A stretch of DNA of 64,000 nt, taken from the NCBI GenBank assembly GCA_965248195.1, contig CBDFIQ010000002.1, forward strand, positions 864,001-928,000, in the 5' to 3' direction. This document shows positions 326 through 33,204 of this stretch, piece after piece. Position 1 is the stretch's first letter. Each line of letters begins with the position of its first letter. A program made the position numbers and the translations under genes. The stretch comes from Longimicrobiales bacterium (lineage in GTDB: Bacteria > Gemmatimonadota > Gemmatimonadetes > Longimicrobiales > Gaopeijiaceae). Below the pieces are notes generated by a model. That model did not search any database, was not told where the DNA came from, and saw only the letters and a program-made list of their open reading frames with translations.

Positions 326-709
326 ACCACCTGACCTCCTCGGGTAGGGTATGCGCAAGAGAGTAGTCCAGTGTTGGCCCCTCGGGCAAGCTACTTGCGC
401 TCGGCTTCGCCGTGGATCGTCGCCGCGGGACGGTGACGATAGCTGCCGGGCTGCCCCGGACGTAAATCTCCCTGTTTTTGCCTCGTGGTCGTACATTTGT
501 GCATGCACCGTAACGAGCACGATTCCTCCTCAGGCAGCCCTATGAGCGACAAATTTCCGATGAAACAGCACAGAGGATCTCGACCGCAGATGTGCGACGT
601 CGACGAGATGGTGTTGGTGCCGGGGTCCACCTGACAGGAGAAAATCGACCGCCTCGGGTGGGCGGCAGGGATCGCGTTCGTCTCTTACGGCTTACGCATT
701 GGGATCCGG

Positions 710-1468
710 GTGAGTAGCCCGGAGATCATGGATCGGATTGAAGGAGTGCTTCCACCGTATGTCAGGCCCGCTCGCGGCCCCCGCGTCGGTGGTTTGTATT
801 CGCTGATAGCCAGCGGAACCAAGGTCGGCTCCAGCCGTCGCCGTTTCAACATTCTTTATGCGGGCGCGCGACGGCTGACACGAACGAAGGACACGGACGA
901 GGCACTGGATAAACTCGAGGGGCACCTGCAGCTATACGTCGCGGAACATGCCCGCCGCAGGGTGTTCGTCCACGCCGGCGTCGTGGGCTGGCGTGGCAGG
1001 GCCATCGTCATCCCGGGGCGCACGATGAGCGGCAAGTCGACTCTGGTCAAGGCATTGGTCGAGGCGGGAGCGACGTACTACTCAGATGAATACGCCGTTC
1101 TTGATAAGCATGGTCGGGTGCATCCCTATGCGAAGGCTCTGTCGATGCGGCAGAACGGGGGTGGACGCCCGAAGAAGGTCCTTCCGGAAGCTTTGGGCGG
1201 AAAAACCGGTGTCAGACCGCTCTCGGTAGGTTTGGTCGTCGCGACCCACTACCAGCCCGATGCTCGCTGGCGACCGCGTCAGCTTTCGCCTGGGCGGGCG
1301 GTGATGGAGCTCTTGGCCCACACCGTCCCCGCCAGACGCGATCCGGAGCGGGTCTTCGCAACGCTGCCTTCGGCCACGGCCGACGCGATGGTGCTAAAGG
1401 GGGCGCGTGGTGAGGCCACCGAAATCGCCGAAGTCCTCTTGGCCCGGTTAACGGAACGGGCGGGCTGA
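710..1468 (+). CDS. HPr kinase-related P-loop kinase (true start uncertain; frame open from 635)
   Basis: HAGVV...GRTMSGKSTL Walker A and YYSDEYAVL motif, typical of HprK-related kinases. Confidence 0.75.
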   Translation: MSSPEIMDRIEGVLPPYVRPARGPRVGGLYSLIASGTKVGSSRRRFNILYAGARRLTRTKDTDEALDKLEGHLQLYVAEHARRRVFVHAGVVGWRGRAIVIPGRTMSGKSTLVKALVEAGATYYSDEYAVLDKHGRVHPYAKALSMRQNGGGRPKKVLPEALGGKTGVRPLSVGLVVATHYQPDARWRPRQLSPGRAVMELLAHTVPARRDPERVFATLPSATADAMVLKGARGEATEIAEVLLARLTERAG

Positions 1469-1504
1469 GGTTCCTGAAAGGGTAGCTCGGACGAGTAAAG
1501 TGGT

Positions 1505-2880
1505 GGTCAAGTCCCGATTTGTGTGTAAAAGCGGAGGAAGCTCCTCGCCTTCGGCTAGGCTGCTTGGGCGACCTCCTGTTTCTGGAGGAGTGAGAGGTCG
1601 AGGTAACGCCGGTCGCCCCAGACGTGTGTGGTCCTGAGTGCGACGGCCGTGATGAGCCTGAGGGCGCTGGCCCGGTCCGGGAAGGCGCCGGCGGCCTTGA
1701 TCCTGCGTTTGATCTCGCCGTGCAGCCGCTCGAGGCTGTTGGTGGTACGCAGCCGGGGCCAGTGCGCCTCGGGGAACGCGTAGAACTGCGTCGCTGCCCC
1801 GAAGCCCCGCTCCAGGACCTCCACGGCCTCGGGCAGCTCCTTCTTCCAGCGTGCGCCGAACTCGCCCAGGAGCTTCTTCGCCTCGGCGAGTCCGGATGTC
1901 TGGAAGATCACCGAGACCTCACGCGCCACGCGCTTGCGTAGGCGGTGGGGGACCCTCGCCCCCACATTACGCTGCAGATGGACCGTACACCTCTGACGGC
2001 GTGCCTCGGGCAGGAAGCGGCGGACCGCAGCTGCCAGGCCTGCGTGCTCATCGGCGATCACGAGCTCGACACCGCCGAGGCCGCGGTCCTGGAGTTGCTC
2101 GAGGAGCTCCGACCAGCTCTGCTGCGACTCCTCAGCGCCCAGCGTGACGGCCAGGAGCCGTCGGTGACCCTCAGGGCCCACTGCATACGCCACGAGCGCA
2201 CTCACGTTCTCGACTTTGCGGGCCCAGCGGGCGTCCAAGAACGTGGCGTCCAGGTACAGATAGGGGTGAGGCCCCTCGATCGGCGCACGGCGCAGCCCTT
2301 CCACGGCCTCGTCGAGCCGTTTTGCCACACGACTCACCGTCGAGCGCCCAACACGCTCGCCCATCAGCGCCTCGGTGACGTCGCCCATCTTGCGCTGTGA
2401 CACGCCGCTCACATACGCCTCGACCATCATCTCGTCGAGCTCGGGGCTCCTGCGCTGGTAGCGGCCGATCACGTCGGCCGGCGAACCGTTGTCCCGGCTC
2501 CGGGGCATGGCGACCTCGATCTGCCCCAGGCTCGTCAGCAGCCGCCTCAGGTATGTGCCGTTCCTATGGTCCTTCCGGCTTCCCACCCGCTCGAAGCGGC
2601 GTGCACCTACCATGGCCTTCAGCTCCTCTTCCAGCACCATCTCGAGCGTCAGCCGGATCGCGCCTTGAAACAGCTCGCGCAAATCATCGCGTAGCTCGTC
2701 TTGCGTGGCCCGACCGATCTCCACAATCTCTTGCATCGGAAGCTCCTCTCCGGTTCCGAGCCTGCTCTGCAGACCCGGACTCCCGGGTTCATGTGACAGT
2801 GAACAACAACAGAGGAGCTTCCGTTTTTCTTTCCCTCCTGTCCAGCTTATCCGCTTTTACACAAATCTAGGGACACTACC
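1505..2880 (-). mobile_element. IS256-family insertion sequence, copy 1 (1376 bp)
   Basis: Imperfect terminal IRs (GGTCAAGTCCCGATTTGTGTGTAAAAGCGGA vs GGTAGTGTCCCTAGATTTGTGTAAAAGCGGA); 9-bp TSD TAAAGTGGT at 1496-1504 and 2881-2889. Confidence 0.95.
1555..2736 (-). CDS. IS256-family transposase
   Basis: RNGTYLRRLLTSLGQIEVAMPRSR, YLDATF, QRCTVH and RTTNSLERLHGEIKRR motifs. Confidence 0.95.
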   Translation of the reverse strand: MQEIVEIGRATQDELRDDLRELFQGAIRLTLEMVLEEELKAMVGARRFERVGSRKDHRNGTYLRRLLTSLGQIEVAMPRSRDNGSPADVIGRYQRRSPELDEMMVEAYVSGVSQRKMGDVTEALMGERVGRSTVSRVAKRLDEAVEGLRRAPIEGPHPYLYLDATFLDARWARKVENVSALVAYAVGPEGHRRLLAVTLGAEESQQSWSELLEQLQDRGLGGVELVIADEHAGLAAAVRRFLPEARRQRCTVHLQRNVGARVPHRLRKRVAREVSVIFQTSGLAEAKKLLGEFGARWKKELPEAVEVLERGFGAATQFYAFPEAHWPRLRTTNSLERLHGEIKRRIKAAGAFPDRASALRLITAVALRTTHVWGDRRYLDLSLLQKQEVAQAA

Positions 2881-2955
2881 TAAAGTGGTTGTGCGCATCG
2901 TATGACTGGTGAATGTTTGTAGTGTCAGCATGCGCCGATTTCGAGTGAGGTACCG

Positions 2956-3501
2956 ATGGAAACGACGAACGCCCTGATGCCTCGTGCGAGGCAAGACGAG
3001 CTGGTTGTCGAACAACTTCCCGACGAAACGTTGGTCTACGACTTGAAGCGCCATAAAGCACATTGCCTAAACCGCACGTCAGCACTCGCCTGGTCACGCT
3101 GCGATGGGCGAACGACTGTGGCCGAGGTAGCCGCGCTGCTGGAGGGGGAATTGAAAATTCCGGCAGACGAGGCAGTGGTGTGGATGGCGCTGGACCGCCT
3201 AGGAAGGGCGCACCTGCTGAAGGACCGGGTGACCTTGCCGGCAGATAGGACCCGGTACTCGCGGCGCGAGGTGCTCCGAACCTTGCGACGGGTTGCTGGG
3301 ATCTCGCTCCTCCTGCCCGTGATCGAATCAATCGTGTCGCCACTCGCGGCGGCACAACAATCTAATTGTGTCGATGTGGACACGTGCGAAAAAGTTATGG
3401 TACCTCCTCAGTGTTACAACCAGATGATCTGTGGGTCTTCGGACGAATGTTGTGGGCCCGAAGGGAACCCGCCCGAGTGTAAGAAACACTCTTGTATCTA
3501 A
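2956..3501 (+). CDS. PqqD/RRE-domain protein fused to a twin-arginine-like leader and a Cys-rich C-terminal peptide
   Basis: DETLVYDLKRHKAHCLNRTSALAWSRCDGRTTVAEV is PqqD-like; SRREVL...LLLPVIESIVSPLAAA; 8 Cys in the last 45 aa; GAGGT RBS. Confidence 0.8.
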   Translation: METTNALMPRARQDELVVEQLPDETLVYDLKRHKAHCLNRTSALAWSRCDGRTTVAEVAALLEGELKIPADEAVVWMALDRLGRAHLLKDRVTLPADRTRYSRREVLRTLRRVAGISLLLPVIESIVSPLAAAQQSNCVDVDTCEKVMVPPQCYNQMICGSSDECCGPEGNPPECKKHSCI

Positions 3502-3585
3502 CGAATCTGCACCGGTGACATACGTGTAGCGGGATGCCGGCGTTCGCGTTACCGTGACCAGGACCCGGGGGCACGCGGCGAACTA

Positions 3586-4398
3586 GGGCCTGTTAACACT
3601 ATCTGAGGGCTTCGACGATGAGCGCGAAGTGGATGAAGGCGGTAAACATCACGTCGAGCTTGTCAAAGCGGGAGAAGATTCTTCTGAAGCCTTTGAGTCG
3701 CCGAAATAACCGCTCTATTTCGTTACGACGGCGATACATGACTCGGTCATACTGCCACGGGTTAACACGGCCCTGCTTGGGTGGCACGACCGGCGTAAAC
3801 CCCAGCTCCAACACCAATTGCCGTGTTTCGCCCCCCTCGTACGCCCGGTCCATGATCATGGACACTGTGGAATGTACCGGCTTCAACGTGCGTAGCAGTT
3901 CCCGTCCTTCCGGCGCGTCGTGCTTGTGGCCTGGCGATAGCGAGAAGGTTATCGCGGTTCGAGCATCTGCGGCAACCATATGAATCTTGGTGGTCCAGCC
4001 TCCACGCGACTTGCCGATGGCCTGCGGGCCGTTTTTTTTAGAGCGCCGGTGCCATCAGGGTGCACCTTGACGATGGTACTGTCGATCGACAGAGCTTGGA
4101 TCTTGATCCGGATAATTTGCTCGTCTTGCAGGGCCGCAAAGACACGATCCAGCACACCTGCCCTGGCCCAGCGATTCATTCGGGTGTAGATCGTATGCCA
4201 GTTACCGAAACGCGGAGGCAACCCCCGCCATTTGCAGCCGTGTTCGGCCACATACAGGATCGCGTTAAGCACTTCGAGATTGGAGATGCTCACATTGCCG
4301 CGCTGATGCGGAAAGCAAGCCTCTATCCGACGATATTGGGACTCTGTGATTTTCATAGCCCCAATATACTACAAATTGCCCTTAGTGTTAACAGACCC
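3586..4398 (-). mobile_element. IS5-family (IS427-like) insertion sequence
   Basis: 16-bp IRs GGGCCTGTTAACACTA / GGGTCTGTTAACACTA; CTAG at both ends (TA or CTAG duplication). Confidence 0.92.
3599..4356 (-). CDS. IS5-family transposase, orfA and orfB joined by a -1 frameshift at the A8 run (4032-4039)
   Basis: orfA GCKWRGLPPRFGNWHTIY...SIDSTIVKVH; the -1 frame continues KNGPQAIGKSRGGWTTKIHM...MDRAY...RNEIERLF. Confidence 0.9.
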
Positions 4399-4409
4399 TA
4401 GTAGCAGCA

Positions 4410-5498
4410 GTGCTCGCCGGTGCGTGGCGCCCCACCCCGCCGCCGCTTTCTCTTTCACCCACTGGCCTGGCCGAGATCACGCCGCTGCTTCTCAGGACGG
4501 GATCAGCGGGTCTGGGCTGGTGGCGTGTGCGGTCGTCCGACCTACGGACCAGCTCGGCTGCCCTCCAGCTTCAGCAGGCGTACCGCATTTACATCCTCAA
4601 GGCTGGCGCCCAGGAGCGCCGAATCGTACAGGCGATCACGCTCCTTCGGTCGGCGGGTGTGGAGCCGCTGCTGGTCAAGGGCTGGGCCATCGCTCGACTG
4701 TACCCCGAACGCGGACTGCGACCATACGGAGACATCGACCTGTGTGTTCGGCCGGAACAGTATGCAGTCGCGCTGGCTGTGCTCGCCCCGGAGCCAGAGA
4801 GGGCCAACGTCGATTTGCACGAGGGTTTGAGCCAGCTCCACCGCCCTTCGCTGGATGATGTCTACGAGCGTTCCCAACTGGTACCGCTGTCTGATGTCGA
4901 CGTGCGGATATTGGGACCCGAAGATCATCTCCGCTACATGTGCATACACATGTTGCAGCATGGCGCGCACCGCGCCTTGTGGCTGTGCGACATCGCCGTC
5001 GTGCTGGAATCTCTGCCCGAGGATTTCGACTGGGAGTATTTGCTGCGGGGAGACCGGCGGCACGCGGATTGGGTGGCATCCACCGTGGGTCTGGCACACC
5101 AGCTCCTCGGGGCCCGCCTGGACGGTATTCCCCTGGCTGAGAGGACTAGACACCTGCCCAAATGGCTCCTTCCCTCGGTGCTCAACCAGTGGTCGATGGA
5201 GGAGCATTACATGGACGCAGGGTCGATCGCGTACTCCTTCCGGCGCCCGGCCCAGCTGCTAAAAGCGCTCCGCCTCCGTTGGCCCAATCCGATCCAGGCC
5301 ACGATACGAGTCGGAGGGCCGTTCAATGAACTGCCCAGATGGCCGTTTCAACTGTGGGAGTGTGTATTGAGGACGGTGCATTTCCTTACCCAGGTGCCGA
5401 CGCTGGTCCGAGAGAGATCCTTCCGCCCCGTGAGGGGGTCGGGAACAGGTCCGATAGCTACAGGGGGGAAAAAAAGGGAGGAGGGGATCAAGGAGTAG
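4410..5498 (+). CDS. Nucleotidyltransferase family protein (NTP_transf_5-like); 5' end probably cut by the IS5 element
   Basis: LLVKGWAIARLYPERGLRPYGDIDLCV, VDLH, H..QHG, WLCDIA motifs. Confidence 0.8.
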   Translation: MLAGAWRPTPPPLSLSPTGLAEITPLLLRTGSAGLGWWRVRSSDLRTSSAALQLQQAYRIYILKAGAQERRIVQAITLLRSAGVEPLLVKGWAIARLYPERGLRPYGDIDLCVRPEQYAVALAVLAPEPERANVDLHEGLSQLHRPSLDDVYERSQLVPLSDVDVRILGPEDHLRYMCIHMLQHGAHRALWLCDIAVVLESLPEDFDWEYLLRGDRRHADWVASTVGLAHQLLGARLDGIPLAERTRHLPKWLLPSVLNQWSMEEHYMDAGSIAYSFRRPAQLLKALRLRWPNPIQATIRVGGPFNELPRWPFQLWECVLRTVHFLTQVPTLVRERSFRPVRGSGTGPIATGGKKREEGIKE

Positions 5499-11356: not shown

Positions 11357-12583
11357 ATGCTTAAAGCACGCTACTACCAGAACGACGGCTCGGAGGGGAA
11401 GGCTCAGGCTCTCCCCGAATGGCTTTTCGACGGCGTCGTCCACGAGGACGTCCTGCACCAGGTGATCAAGGTCTACCTGTTGAATCAACGGCAGGGTACT
11501 GCTTCGGCCAAGTCCCGGGGCCAGGTCAAGGGCGGGGGCCGCAAGCCGTGGAGGCAGAAGGGGACCGGGCGGGCCCGCGCAGGAACGATCCGCGCCTCGC
11601 AATTTGCGGGGGGCGGGGTCGCGTTTCCGCCCATTCCGCATTCGTGGAGGCAGCGCGTCCCTCGAAAGGTCCGGGCCCTGGCTCGGCGATCCGCGTTTAA
11701 TTCCCGGGCTCAGGGAGACCGGGTAGTCCTGGTGGACCCGCTCGAGTTCGACACTCCCAAGACCAAGAAACTCGTGGAGTTGGTTGGAAAGCTCGGAGCC
11801 GAGGGAAAGGTGCTCCTCCTCACGGATGGCGGGAAGGAAAACGTCTATCTCTCGTCACGAAACCTCCCGGGCGTGGTGGTGCGGCCCTTTGGCGAGGAGT
11901 CCGCCTACGACATCCTCTGGGCCAACCTTCTCGTCATCGAGAAGACGGCGCTCGAGAGTGCCGAACCGTCCGAAACACACAGGGCCGCTATGGAATCGCG
12001 GTCCCGAGGTGAACCCGCGGTGAGGGCGAGGGAAAGGGCTGTCGAGGAGGCGCAGGCGGAGGGAAGGAAGGCAAGGGTGGGGCATGGGACGAAGTCCAGG
12101 AGCGTTACGGCGGTGAAGGCCAAGGCTGAAGTTCAGCCGGAAAGGAAAGCCGCAGCCAAGGCTAAACCGAAGTCCAAGGCCAAGGTCGAATCCGAAGCCT
12201 CGCCGGGGACGGCCAAGACGAAGGTGGCGCCCAAGGCCCAGGCCAAACCCAAGGCTGAGATCAAAGCCAAAGCCACGACCAAGCCCGAAGCCAAGGGGGT
12301 GGCCAAGGCAGAGGCGGCACCCAAGAAGAAGGCTGCACCCAAGAAGAAGGCTGCACCCAAGAAGAAGGCTGCACCGAAATCCTCGGGGGCTTCCAGGAGC
12401 GAGCTGGATCTTTCGGCCATCAAGCTGCCCAAGGTAGGTGACATGCCCGGGTTCCTCGCTCAGTTCGACACCGTATCCGATATCAAGGCCCTTATGGTGC
12501 GTGATTCACGCAAGACGGCCCAGGCCCACTACGAAGCGCGCTTGACGGAGCTTTCAGGTGCGACCAAGGGCAAGAAGGACTGA
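11357..12583 (+). CDS. rplD: 50S ribosomal protein L4 with a ~200-aa C-terminal extension
   Basis: RKPWRQKGTGRARAG core; Ala/Lys/Pro-rich tail and a small C-terminal domain. Confidence 0.97.
   Translation: MLKARYYQNDGSEGKAQALPEWLFDGVVHEDVLHQVIKVYLLNQRQGTASAKSRGQVKGGGRKPWRQKGTGRARAGTIRASQFAGGGVAFPPIPHSWRQRVPRKVRALARRSAFNSRAQGDRVVLVDPLEFDTPKTKKLVELVGKLGAEGKVLLLTDGGKENVYLSSRNLPGVVVRPFGEESAYDILWANLLVIEKTALESAEPSETHRAAMESRSRGEPAVRARERAVEEAQAEGRKARVGHGTKSRSVTAVKAKAEVQPERKAAAKAKPKSKAKVESEASPGTAKTKVAPKAQAKPKAEIKAKATTKPEAKGVAKAEAAPKKKAAPKKKAAPKKKAAPKSSGASRSELDLSAIKLPKVGDMPGFLAQFDTVSDIKALMVRDSRKTAQAHYEARLTELSGATKGKKD
12314..12379 (+). repeat. 18-bp tandem repeat (AAPKKK x3.7) in the rplD tail
   Basis: gctgcacccaagaagaag units. 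Confidence 0.9.
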
Positions 12584-27278: not shown

Positions 27279-28088
27279 ATGAATGCCACGCAATCGTCGG
27301 ACCTGGCGACCGGGTTCCATCCCCTGATCGGTCGAACCCTCGTCGTTACAAGGGCGGCGTCTCAGGCCGATGGATTGGTCGCGGCCTTGGAGGCCTTGGG
27401 CGCGAGGGTGGTCCGTCTTCCGGCGATCAGAGTCGAGCCTGCAGTGGACCAGGCGCCGCTACGGCGCGCCGTGCAGGGAGCCTCAGGCTACCATTGGGTG
27501 ATCTTTACCTCGGCCAACGGTGTCGATTTCTTCCGAAGAGCGGCGGAGGATCTTGGGATCGATGTGAACGGCGCCCTTGCCTCGACACGCCTGTGCTGCA
27601 TCGGGCCGCCCACAGCGAACGCCATCGAGGCTCTCGGCCTCACGGTTGAGGTCGTCCCTGAGACCCATAGGGCCGAAGCCGTGGTCGAGGCGCTCTCGGG
27701 CCGGACGTCGGTTCGTGGCCAACACATTTTGATCCCGACGGTGGCCGGGGCCAGGCCCGTCTTACGAGCCGGCTTGCGGGAACTGGGTGCCGAGGTAGAT
27801 GAGGTGATCGCGTACAGAACCGTCTTCGTCGAAGAGGCAAGCACCGGGGTCCTGAAACAGCTCGAAAATGGGGTGGATCTCGTGACGTTCACCTCTCCGT
27901 CTACCGTACGGAGCTTCCATCGTTTGGCGGGTGGCCAAGTCGTCCCGGACGCGGCCGTGATCGGGCCGGTGACGGCCGATGCTGCCCGCGAGTTGGGGTA
28001 TCGGGTTGCGGTGGAAGCGGATCCGTTCACAATTTCAGGATTGGTTGAGGCGATCTCGCGTCACTTTGAAGAGGATGAACATGGGTGA
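27279..28088 (+). CDS. hemD: Uroporphyrinogen-III synthase
   Basis: LVVTRA, WVIFTSANGV, CIGPPTA, FTSPSTV, IGPVTA. Confidence 0.9.
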   Translation: MNATQSSDLATGFHPLIGRTLVVTRAASQADGLVAALEALGARVVRLPAIRVEPAVDQAPLRRAVQGASGYHWVIFTSANGVDFFRRAAEDLGIDVNGALASTRLCCIGPPTANAIEALGLTVEVVPETHRAEAVVEALSGRTSVRGQHILIPTVAGARPVLRAGLRELGAEVDEVIAYRTVFVEEASTGVLKQLENGVDLVTFTSPSTVRSFHRLAGGQVVPDAAVIGPVTADAARELGYRVAVEADPFTISGLVEAISRHFEEDEHG

Positions 28089-31828: not shown

Positions 31829-33204
31829 GGTCAAGTCCCGATTTGTGTGTAAAAGCGGAGGAAGCTCCTCGCCTTCGGCTAGGCTGCTTGGGCGACCTCC
31901 TGTTTCTGGAGGAGTGAGAGGTCGAGGTAACGCCGGTCGCCCCAGACGTGTGTGGTCCTGAGTGCGACGGCCGTGATGAGCCTGAGGGCGCTGGCCCGGT
32001 CCGGGAAGGCGCCGGCGGCCTTGATCCTGCGTTTGATCTCGCCGTGCAGCCGCTCGAGGCTGTTGGTGGTACGCAGCCGGGGCCAGTGCGCCTCGGGGAA
32101 CGCGTAGAACTGCGTCGCTGCCCCGAAGCCCCGCTCCAGGACCTCCACGGCCTCGGGCAGCTCCTTCTTCCAGCGTGCGCCGAACTCGCCCAGGAGCTTC
32201 TTCGCCTCGGCGAGTCCGGATGTCTGGAAGATCACCGAGACCTCACGCGCCACGCGCTTGCGTAGGCGGTGGGGGACCCTCGCCCCCACATTACGCTGCA
32301 GATGGACCGTACACCTCTGACGGCGTGCCTCGGGCAGGAAGCGGCGGACCGCAGCTGCCAGGCCTGCGTGCTCATCGGCGATCACGAGCTCGACACCGCC
32401 GAGGCCGCGGTCCTGGAGTTGCTCGAGGAGCTCCGACCAGCTCTGCTGCGACTCCTCAGCGCCCAGCGTGACGGCCAGGAGCCGTCGGTGACCCTCAGGG
32501 CCCACTGCATACGCCACGAGCGCACTCACGTTCTCGACTTTGCGGGCCCAGCGGGCGTCCAAGAACGTGGCGTCCAGGTACAGATAGGGGTGAGGCCCCT
32601 CGATCGGCGCACGGCGCAGCCCTTCCACGGCCTCGTCGAGCCGTTTTGCCACACGACTCACCGTCGAGCGCCCAACACGCTCGCCCATCAGCGCCTCGGT
32701 GACGTCGCCCATCTTGCGCTGTGACACGCCGCTCACATACGCCTCGACCATCATCTCGTCGAGCTCGGGGCTCCTGCGCTGGTAGCGGCCGATCACGTCG
32801 GCCGGCGAACCGTTGTCCCGGCTCCGGGGCATGGCGACCTCGATCTGCCCCAGGCTCGTCAGCAGCCGCCTCAGGTATGTGCCGTTCCTATGGTCCTTCC
32901 GGCTTCCCACCCGCTCGAAGCGGCGTGCACCTACCATGGCCTTCAGCTCCTCTTCCAGCACCATCTCGAGCGTCAGCCGGATCGCGCCTTGAAACAGCTC
33001 GCGCAAATCATCGCGTAGCTCGTCTTGCGTGGCCCGACCGATCTCCACAATCTCTTGCATCGGAAGCTCCTCTCCGGTTCCGAGCCTGCTCTGCAGACCC
33101 GGACTCCCGGGTTCATGTGACAGTGAACAACAACAGAGGAGCTTCCGTTTTTCTTTCCCTCCTGTCCAGCTTATCCGCTTTTACACAAATCTAGGGACAC
33201 TACC
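31829..33204 (-). mobile_element. IS256-family insertion sequence, copy 2 (1376 bp)
   Basis: Same ends and ORF translations as copy 1; 9-bp TSD TTCGAAGGG at 31820-31828 and 33205-33213. Confidence 0.95.
31879..33060 (-). CDS. IS256-family transposase
   Basis: Protein identical to 1555-2736. Confidence 0.95.
   Translation of the reverse strand: MQEIVEIGRATQDELRDDLRELFQGAIRLTLEMVLEEELKAMVGARRFERVGSRKDHRNGTYLRRLLTSLGQIEVAMPRSRDNGSPADVIGRYQRRSPELDEMMVEAYVSGVSQRKMGDVTEALMGERVGRSTVSRVAKRLDEAVEGLRRAPIEGPHPYLYLDATFLDARWARKVENVSALVAYAVGPEGHRRLLAVTLGAEESQQSWSELLEQLQDRGLGGVELVIADEHAGLAAAVRRFLPEARRQRCTVHLQRNVGARVPHRLRKRVAREVSVIFQTSGLAEAKKLLGEFGARWKKELPEAVEVLERGFGAATQFYAFPEAHWPRLRTTNSLERLHGEIKRRIKAAGAFPDRASALRLITAVALRTTHVWGDRRYLDLSLLQKQEVAQAA

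Follow-up and report, generated by a model that had tools for sequence, protein, structure and literature searches.

Our analysis of a 64,000-nucleotide stretch of DNA from a Longimicrobiales bacterium (contig CBDFIQ010000002.1 of assembly GCA_965248195.1, positions 864,001 to 928,000; hereafter the window) revealed a three-gene cassette that encodes an HprK-like kinase, a recognition element (RRE) for peptides made by ribosomes and modified after translation (RiPPs) that is fused to its own Cys-rich precursor, and an NTP_transf_5 nucleotidyltransferase (NTase). The cassette is real, conserved and undescribed in the literature searched, and it differs from phosphorylated-peptide pathways by the precursor-fused RRE. 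Judging from its gene and those of its relatives, the kinase probably represents a new selenoprotein family. We consider it fairly probable that the three genes form a pathway, with a selenoprotein as its kinase, for a Ser-phosphorylated and probably glycosylated Cys-rich mini-protein that is exported by the twin-arginine translocation (Tat) system.

The cassette and its precursor fusion

Three open reading frames (ORFs) on the forward strand, at 710–1468, 2956–3501 and 4410–5498, correspond to the kinase-like, RRE-fusion and NTase genes. The initial annotation had described them as co-oriented genes separated by two insertion sequences (IS), and the order kinase–fusion–NTase without the two IS is indeed found in six genomes of the same genus and in one of another genus; in IS-free relatives the cassette sits mostly between rpoC and rpsL. 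What did not hold is the kinase start at 710, and one of the two elements lies inside the NTase gene. Profile searches assigned PF05402 to the fusion (above cut-off) and PF14907 to the NTase (E 1.6e-28), while the kinase matched TIGR04352 (E 9e-16). TIGR04352 is the best NCBIfam match in all 80 aligned kinases. The match scores 57–58 bits (58 in the window copy) against a cut-off of 200 and covers profile positions 74–161 of 280 only.

We found 80 kinase loci in genomes labelled Gemmatimonadota, Acidobacteriota, Armatimonadota, Abditibacteriota, Methylomirabilota, Chloroflexota, Nitrospinota and Planctomycetota. The fusion is present in 60 of them and the NTase in 65, and 41 of the 58 loci with at least 3 kb on both sides contain the two together. 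All 20 genomes with fusion-less loci match the fusion elsewhere (one to six matches each), two of them only with partial or split matches. Across 201 genomes of the phylum, tallies that include the unpublished G025, G168 and G265, the kinase occurs in 7 and a match to the fusion profile in 17; the six strong fusion matches (E < 1e-30) all fall in kinase-positive genomes. Recurrent neighbours are tetratricopeptide-repeat (TPR), Wzy, Wzz, polysaccharide-export, peptidase C25 and housekeeping genes, and neither lasso cyclase nor B2 peptidase appeared in the 16 of the 30 top neighbour clusters that were scanned. The co-occurrence on which the initial annotation depended was thus found, without a constant association with a lasso cyclase. 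Its statement that the window holds no lasso cyclase, B2 peptidase or radical SAM gene also stood: genome-wide, Asn_synthase matches lie outside the window, the best B2 match is below cut-off and on another contig, and no radical SAM gene occurs among the 33 window ORFs, outside the ribosomal block at 5.7–27 kb, that were scanned with Pfam. Two complete cassettes that differ in their cores occur in a single genome (L112 and L113), with an additional NTase match upstream of the kinase in L112. A second, divergent kinase–fusion pair in genome G006 (L022:8996–10605) has a 2-Cys core, no selenocysteine-type arm on its kinase and no NTase nearby.

The fusion gene (2956–3501, +; 181 aa) is preceded by its own Shine-Dalgarno-like GAGG and encodes the only RRE of this genome, which also encodes TatC. 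A PqqD-like RRE domain covers residues ~1–95 (2956–3240; PF05402 over residues 24–73) and is followed by an internal twin-arginine signal (3259–3354) that runs from S102-R-R to an A-x-A site at 133, and then by a hypervariable core of 48 residues with eight Cys in the order C-C-C-C-CC-C-C (3355–3498). The RR motif behind the RRE is kept in 148 of the best 150 (distant) representatives, and the leader reads S-R-R ... P-V-I-x-S-I-V-x-P. With the anchor P-x-[hydrophobic]-x-[ST]-[hydrophobic]-x-x-P as reference, a Ser or Thr lies seven residues past its last Pro in 119/120 close and 123/131 distant homologues (242 of 251 anchored sequences; 19 distant homologues without the anchor were left uncounted). 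This residue is the third after the A-x-A site and corresponds to Ser136 (3361–3363) in the window copy, the probable phospho-acceptor. The cores share 33% identity outside Cys, compared with 82–86% in RRE and signal, and the number of Cys is even in 115 of the 131 anchored distant homologues. Moreover, some genomes carry two or three fusion copies in tandem. The phosphorylation and export of a Cys-rich peptide, which had been proposed at the outset, are supported by the conserved Ser/Thr acceptor and the twin-arginine signal, and we regard a phosphorylated and exported core as likely by analogy with known pathways.

The AlphaFold2 model of the RRE superimposes on the lasso B1 protein 6jx3 (Z 9.0, rmsd 2.3 over 83 residues), and a Foldseek search with the fusion returned nothing at E ≤ 0.001, the best rows being lasso B1 proteins. 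The model places a strand at residues 123–127, which suggests that the c-region of the signal (residues 121–129) is probably bound by its own RRE in cis. Its match to the NisB–leader complex 4wd9 extends to residue 130, a stretch that would correspond to the leader site. The fusion profile matches 8,267 clusters at E ≤ 0.001, 5,208 at 1e-10 and 1,080 at 1e-30, where the 5,208 are clusters at 50% identity that may include free RREs. Some loci have an extra 383-aa YkgJ/FliB-like cysteine-cluster gene between precursor and NTase, namely L018 (12054–13205), L020 (11882–13030), L114 and L156 (Atlas 0.98; 34% of members match PF03692, and FliB_C is found in other clusters). The cores of L018, L020 and L114 are rich in Lys, which suggests a further step of lysine methylation at these loci.

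An in-frame UGA in the kinase gene

The kinase homology reaches upstream of 710, in frame, through a TGA at 632–634. Homologous kinases begin about 25 residues before 710, right after the in-frame TGA, and the frame upstream of it is open from an ATG at 542, with changes among relatives that are mostly synonymous. As judged by this homology, the start at 710 is a truncation. The full form, translated through the UGA, would span 542–1468 (+) and comprise 292–308 aa, depending on whether ATG 542, 560 or 590 is used. A model of the read-through protein (590–1465, with Cys in place of selenocysteine) has a predicted local distance difference test (pLDDT) score of 95, and its N-terminal arm is ordered (pLDDT 89). 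The modelled fold is of the HprK/PEPCK type (HprK 1kkl, Z 13.8, rmsd 2.9 over 133 residues), and when PDB sequences were searched with the kinase profile, a single match resulted, at E 0.41.

We surveyed the site in 160 loci, 152 of them distinct. Of the distinct loci, 140 have TGA and 12 have a sense codon at this position, and TAA or TAG never occurs there, while the terminal stops of the same genes (n = 76) are TGA in 40, TAG in 21 and TAA in 15. The TGA forms part of an S-T-U motif and is followed by a hairpin of the selenocysteine insertion sequence (SECIS) type at 649–665 (+), with a 6-bp stem and a 5-nt loop containing a G, 20 nt past the UGA. The bacterial SECIS (bSECIS) model, as given in the available text of PMC13188914, allows a loop of 3–9 nt, a stem of 4–16 bp, a G in the first two loop positions, a spacing of 16–37 nt and a minimum free energy of at most −7.5; the window hairpin agrees with it in all dimensions, at −15.1 kcal/mol over 59 nt. 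All six stem pairs are kept in 135 of 140 TGA loci compared with 5 of 12 sense-codon loci, and a G is present at the first or second loop position in all 140 TGA loci. Of the conserved positions in the gene, the two with the strongest codon locking fall in the stem (0.90 and 0.89; the next reaches 0.81). The stem also covaries, with eight compensatory cells that none of 500 shuffles reached (slid controls, 0–1), in a set of 35 TGA loci hand-picked to include variants and with statistics that ignore relatedness. Furthermore, Cys replaces the UGA in L150 (= P0271), L185 and P0272, which all carry a CxxC, as well as in P0281 and P0299, and the genome encodes selenocysteine tRNA, selA, selB and a UGA-containing, selenocysteine-type selD. 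Taken together, it is very probable that the kinase gene is read through the UGA as selenocysteine.

Several observations weigh against this conclusion. The hairpin region is no more stable than shuffled sequences (z +1.09). Of the genomes with TGA-type loci, 63 of 66 carry selA, but so do 7 of the 8 others and 161 of the 201 phylum genomes; given this high baseline its co-occurrence discriminates little, and we dropped it as a test. Several lineages have Gly, Arg, Glu, Trp or Leu at the site, with at least five changes on a quick tree, and the distant kinases L022, L196–L198, P0318 and P0319 lack both site and arm. The predicted selenocysteine has thus been lost repeatedly in the kinase family, and since the site is repeatedly replaced and the arm is absent from distant kinases, it would be an accessory that is not essential to phosphoryl transfer. 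A link between this loss and Cys-poor cores did not hold up, as three genomes (L204–L206) of the locus type of the selenocysteine-losing clade keep cores with 6–8 Cys, although L022 combines an arm-less kinase with a 2-Cys core. The role that we prefer for the arm, to which we give slightly less than an even chance, is that of an accessory thiol-redox site whose target would be the cysteines of the core or the activity of the kinase.

Proposed pathway and alternative explanations

In the proposed pathway, SelB would act on the hairpin so that the kinase mRNA is read through UGA 632, yielding a kinase with a selenocysteine-bearing N-terminal arm. The RRE of the precursor is predicted to hold the P-V-I-x-S-I-V-x-P strand of the signal in cis, and the kinase would dock on the resulting RRE–strand sheet and phosphorylate, or polyphosphorylate, the Ser at +3 after the cleavage site, similar to LppK. 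The NTP_transf_5 enzyme may then decorate the phosphate, likely with a hexose as PsmN does. Finally, Tat would export the core and a housekeeping signal peptidase would free it, with the RRE staying behind. An RRE that kept its own signal occupied until all modifications are in place would resemble the Tat proofreading chaperones. A wider reading, which we regard as speculative and rather unlikely, is that of a new RiPP class in several uncultured phyla in which the RRE serves as a cis-acting Tat proofreading chaperone and a kinase with a selenocysteine (or CxxC) arm both phosphorylates the core and, while the core is still in the cytoplasm, sets its disulfides ahead of export, giving rise to hypervariable, phosphoglycosylated, knottin-like peptides.

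The docking step is supported by a modelled complex, which weighs less for the window since the pair is that of a homologue, the kinase and precursor of locus L150, where the standard code reads the kinase frame without interruption. The complex scored 0.82, compared with 0.00 for the best of three controls, and its runs agreed in at least 82% of contacts with a partner pLDDT of at least 80. Of solved pairs, 116 of 157 attain the score mark used, as do 2 of 215 mismatched ones; for the alignments used here these figures are only rough. Kinase residues 232–262 contact the RRE sheet (11–33) and the precursor strand (118–129). The interface includes His127 of the invariant H-A-G motif of the kinase, and precursor residues 128–129 adjoin Ser130. 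The model supports docking of the kinase on the RRE beside the acceptor Ser. For the last enzyme, PsmN is required to hexosylate phospho-pseudomycoidin (PMC6993621, available text), but deletion of LppN was without visible effect in the available text of the study on linear polyphosphorylated peptides (LPP; PMC13381572), and we see the chances for and against glycosylation of the core as evenly balanced.

In the window the NTase gene is interrupted. Its detached 5′ end (3529–3585, +) has GCG where relatives start with GTG or TTG, and its remaining frame (4410–5498, +; 362 aa) retains an intact DxD motif. An IS5-family element (3586–4398, −) has inserted into the conserved start of the NTase (G-x-L-[VI]-A), within its first conserved helix, and no Shine-Dalgarno sequence precedes the remaining GTG at 4410. 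An intergenic IS256 element (1505–2880, −; transposase 1555–2736) is flanked by a 9-bp target duplication (1496–1504 and 2881–2889). The genome contains about 100 near-identical IS256 copies and 12 full-length IS5 copies. Contigs from public runs of related strains bridge the IS256 site in four of four runs and the IS5 site in one. Within the IS5 element, the transposase (3599–4356, −) consists of two overlapping frames around a run of A, an arrangement typical of programmed frameshifting.

The UGA could instead be a true stop, with an upstream peptide of 10–30 residues translationally coupled to a kinase that starts at the next AUG, a regulatory hairpin and an otherwise identical pathway. In favour of this, the codon right after the site is ATG at 131 of 160 loci, most of the sense codons that replace the TGA do not encode Cys, and 44 of 50 database proteins are called from the aligned Met, with nothing in front of it, which would also explain how a UGA site gets missed. 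However, the codon after the site is CAG in 7 of 160 loci, including the window copy, where no start codon follows before 710, and the Met is retained in 11 of 12 forms with a continuous frame. Together with the lack of TAA and TAG at the site, the existence of Cys and CxxC forms and an arm that folds together with the kinase in the model, this makes a true stop improbable. Even less probable, and in our view rejected, is an inverted RiPP logic in which the N-terminal L-P-R-L arm of the kinase mimics a lasso leader and docks in the precursor RRE. The arm consensus [LI]-P-[RKQ]-[LY]-[RK]-x-x-S-T found outside the genus of the window does resemble a PxL leader motif, but the arm of the genus lacks P-R-L, and in the model the arm lies outside the interface, in which the kinase binds beside the precursor's own strand.

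The fusion might be neither cleaved nor exported. The RR segment would then be just a recognition motif or an uncleaved membrane anchor, and the Cys-rich tail would bind metal or serve as a surface domain, with its modification taking place there. The signal is internal, about 100 residues into the protein, lacks the Phe of the Tat consensus and is only moderately hydrophobic (best 18-residue mean, 1.73); part of it probably doubles as RRE-binding strand, and TIGR01409 matches 13 of 123 members. Moreover, disulfides are normally not formed in the cytoplasm before Tat export. These points count against export, yet the A-x-A-type site is followed by the conserved Ser at +3, as in the cleaved LPP cores of PMC13381572 (available text), the Cys are mostly even in number, and tandem or dispersed copies carry variable cores, so that we consider an uncleaved fusion unlikely. 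A third explanation, compatible with the exported and modified peptide that we favour, is that the family is functional and the window copy already dead through recent IS expansion, which is quite possible. The IS5 insertion and the missing Shine-Dalgarno sequence make damage to the window copy probable, and the NTase step is probably impaired in this genome. The reversed IS256 between kinase and precursor, the many near-identical IS256 copies and the empty sites of related strains fit recent expansion. Conversely, the kinase, its UGA and hairpin and the fusion with its GAGG are all intact, and the NTase frame is open from 4410 with its DxD motif.

If the favoured reading is true, this P-loop kinase for peptide maturation represents an uncatalogued selenoprotein family that gene callers truncate at the UGA, and selenium metabolism would be linked to RiPP biosynthesis. 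Furthermore, the analysis defines a large precursor family in which the RRE is fused to its own substrate, and for orphan kinase–RRE–NTP_transf_5 cassettes it predicts the substrate, the modified site (Ser +3) and the way out of the cell.

Genomic setting and relation to known systems

The 4.86-Mb genome consists of two contigs. The gap between rpoC and rpsL is an insertion hotspot in the genus, occupied by IS256 and an RCC1-repeat gene in the genome of the window, and in L017 (5608–9735) and L020 (1189–8622) the cassette is interrupted or flanked by inserted type IV pilin-like (N_methyl, GspH) and HD-GYP genes. Divergent from the kinase, a lipoprotein-like ORF at 2–520 (−) with three 18-bp repeats (204–257), an Ig-like stretch and RCC1 repeats continues in L026 (13529–14521) and is followed by another IS256 copy. 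A ribosomal protein L4-like ORF of 408 aa (11357–12583) bears a long Lys/Ala/Pro-rich, histone-like C-terminal extension. Positions 27979–63896 hold a big surface-polysaccharide locus (Wzy, Wzz, Wzi, glycosyltransferases, nucleotide-sugar enzymes, ATP-sulfurylase/APS kinase), which includes a second IS256 at 31829, and Acidobacteriota relatives of the cassette also adjoin polysaccharide genes. Elsewhere in the genome, 17 tRNA genes cluster within 2.3 kb (C1:1071378–1073597).

With respect to selenoproteins, the kinase resembles known bacterial members in its in-frame UGA, the downstream SECIS-type hairpin and its Cys/CxxC homologues. In the selenobacteriocin family TIGR04081 selenocysteine is in the peptide, whereas here it would be in the enzyme. 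Among the 119 selenoprotein families tabulated in PMC13188914 (Table 1) there is no HprK-type or RiPP-modifying kinase, and the available texts of BSepDB (PMC13326102) and SelCysML (PMC13745706) contain no match to HPr and mention a kinase only as PSTK. For RREs, a structure-based survey reports that 21% of PF05402 proteins exceed the length of a discrete RRE without other annotation, and a precursor fusion is not described in its available text (PMC12710340). Neither the precursor nor the selenocysteine kinase is described in the literature searched, which was mostly non-subscription; the candidates of Deng et al. 2026 (Cell Rep) could include the family.

The closest characterised pathway is LPP, described in 2026 from Bacillota with the genes LppA/B/K/S/D/N, in which LppK polyphosphorylates Ser3 of the core, and a free precursor with the leader YxxPxVLxHQxIxFETxxS is served by a discrete RRE (PMC13381572, available text). 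Like the cassette, LPP combines an HprK-like kinase, an RRE and an NTP transferase without a macrolactam cyclase, with an acceptor-type Ser at core position 3 and signal-peptidase-type cleavage, and relatives are often located near polysaccharide genes. The initial annotation knew of no characterised system with this layout; LPP is such a lasso-free combination of kinase, RRE and NTase, but its precursor is free, so that the claim holds for the fusion. The cassette further differs by a twin-arginine signal in place of the YxxP leader, a Cys-rich core, the selenocysteine-type kinase arm and its occurrence in other phyla, and neither an SpI-like peptidase nor an MsbA-like exporter was among the 16 recurrent neighbour clusters scanned. 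With paeninodin and pseudomycoidin (PadeK, PsmK, PsmN) it shares the pair of kinase and NTP_transf_5 protein, but it has no cyclase, B2 peptidase or lasso core, and its predicted acceptor lies close to the core N-terminus instead of being C-terminal. HPr-rel-A, with the kinase TIGR04352 and the PqqD protein TIGR04353, is the best NCBIfam family, yet the kinase stays below the cut-off and the RRE of the cassette is fused. Overall, the cassette would work in the manner of LPP and of the paeninodin tailoring pair, yet it stands outside both and outside HPr-rel-A.

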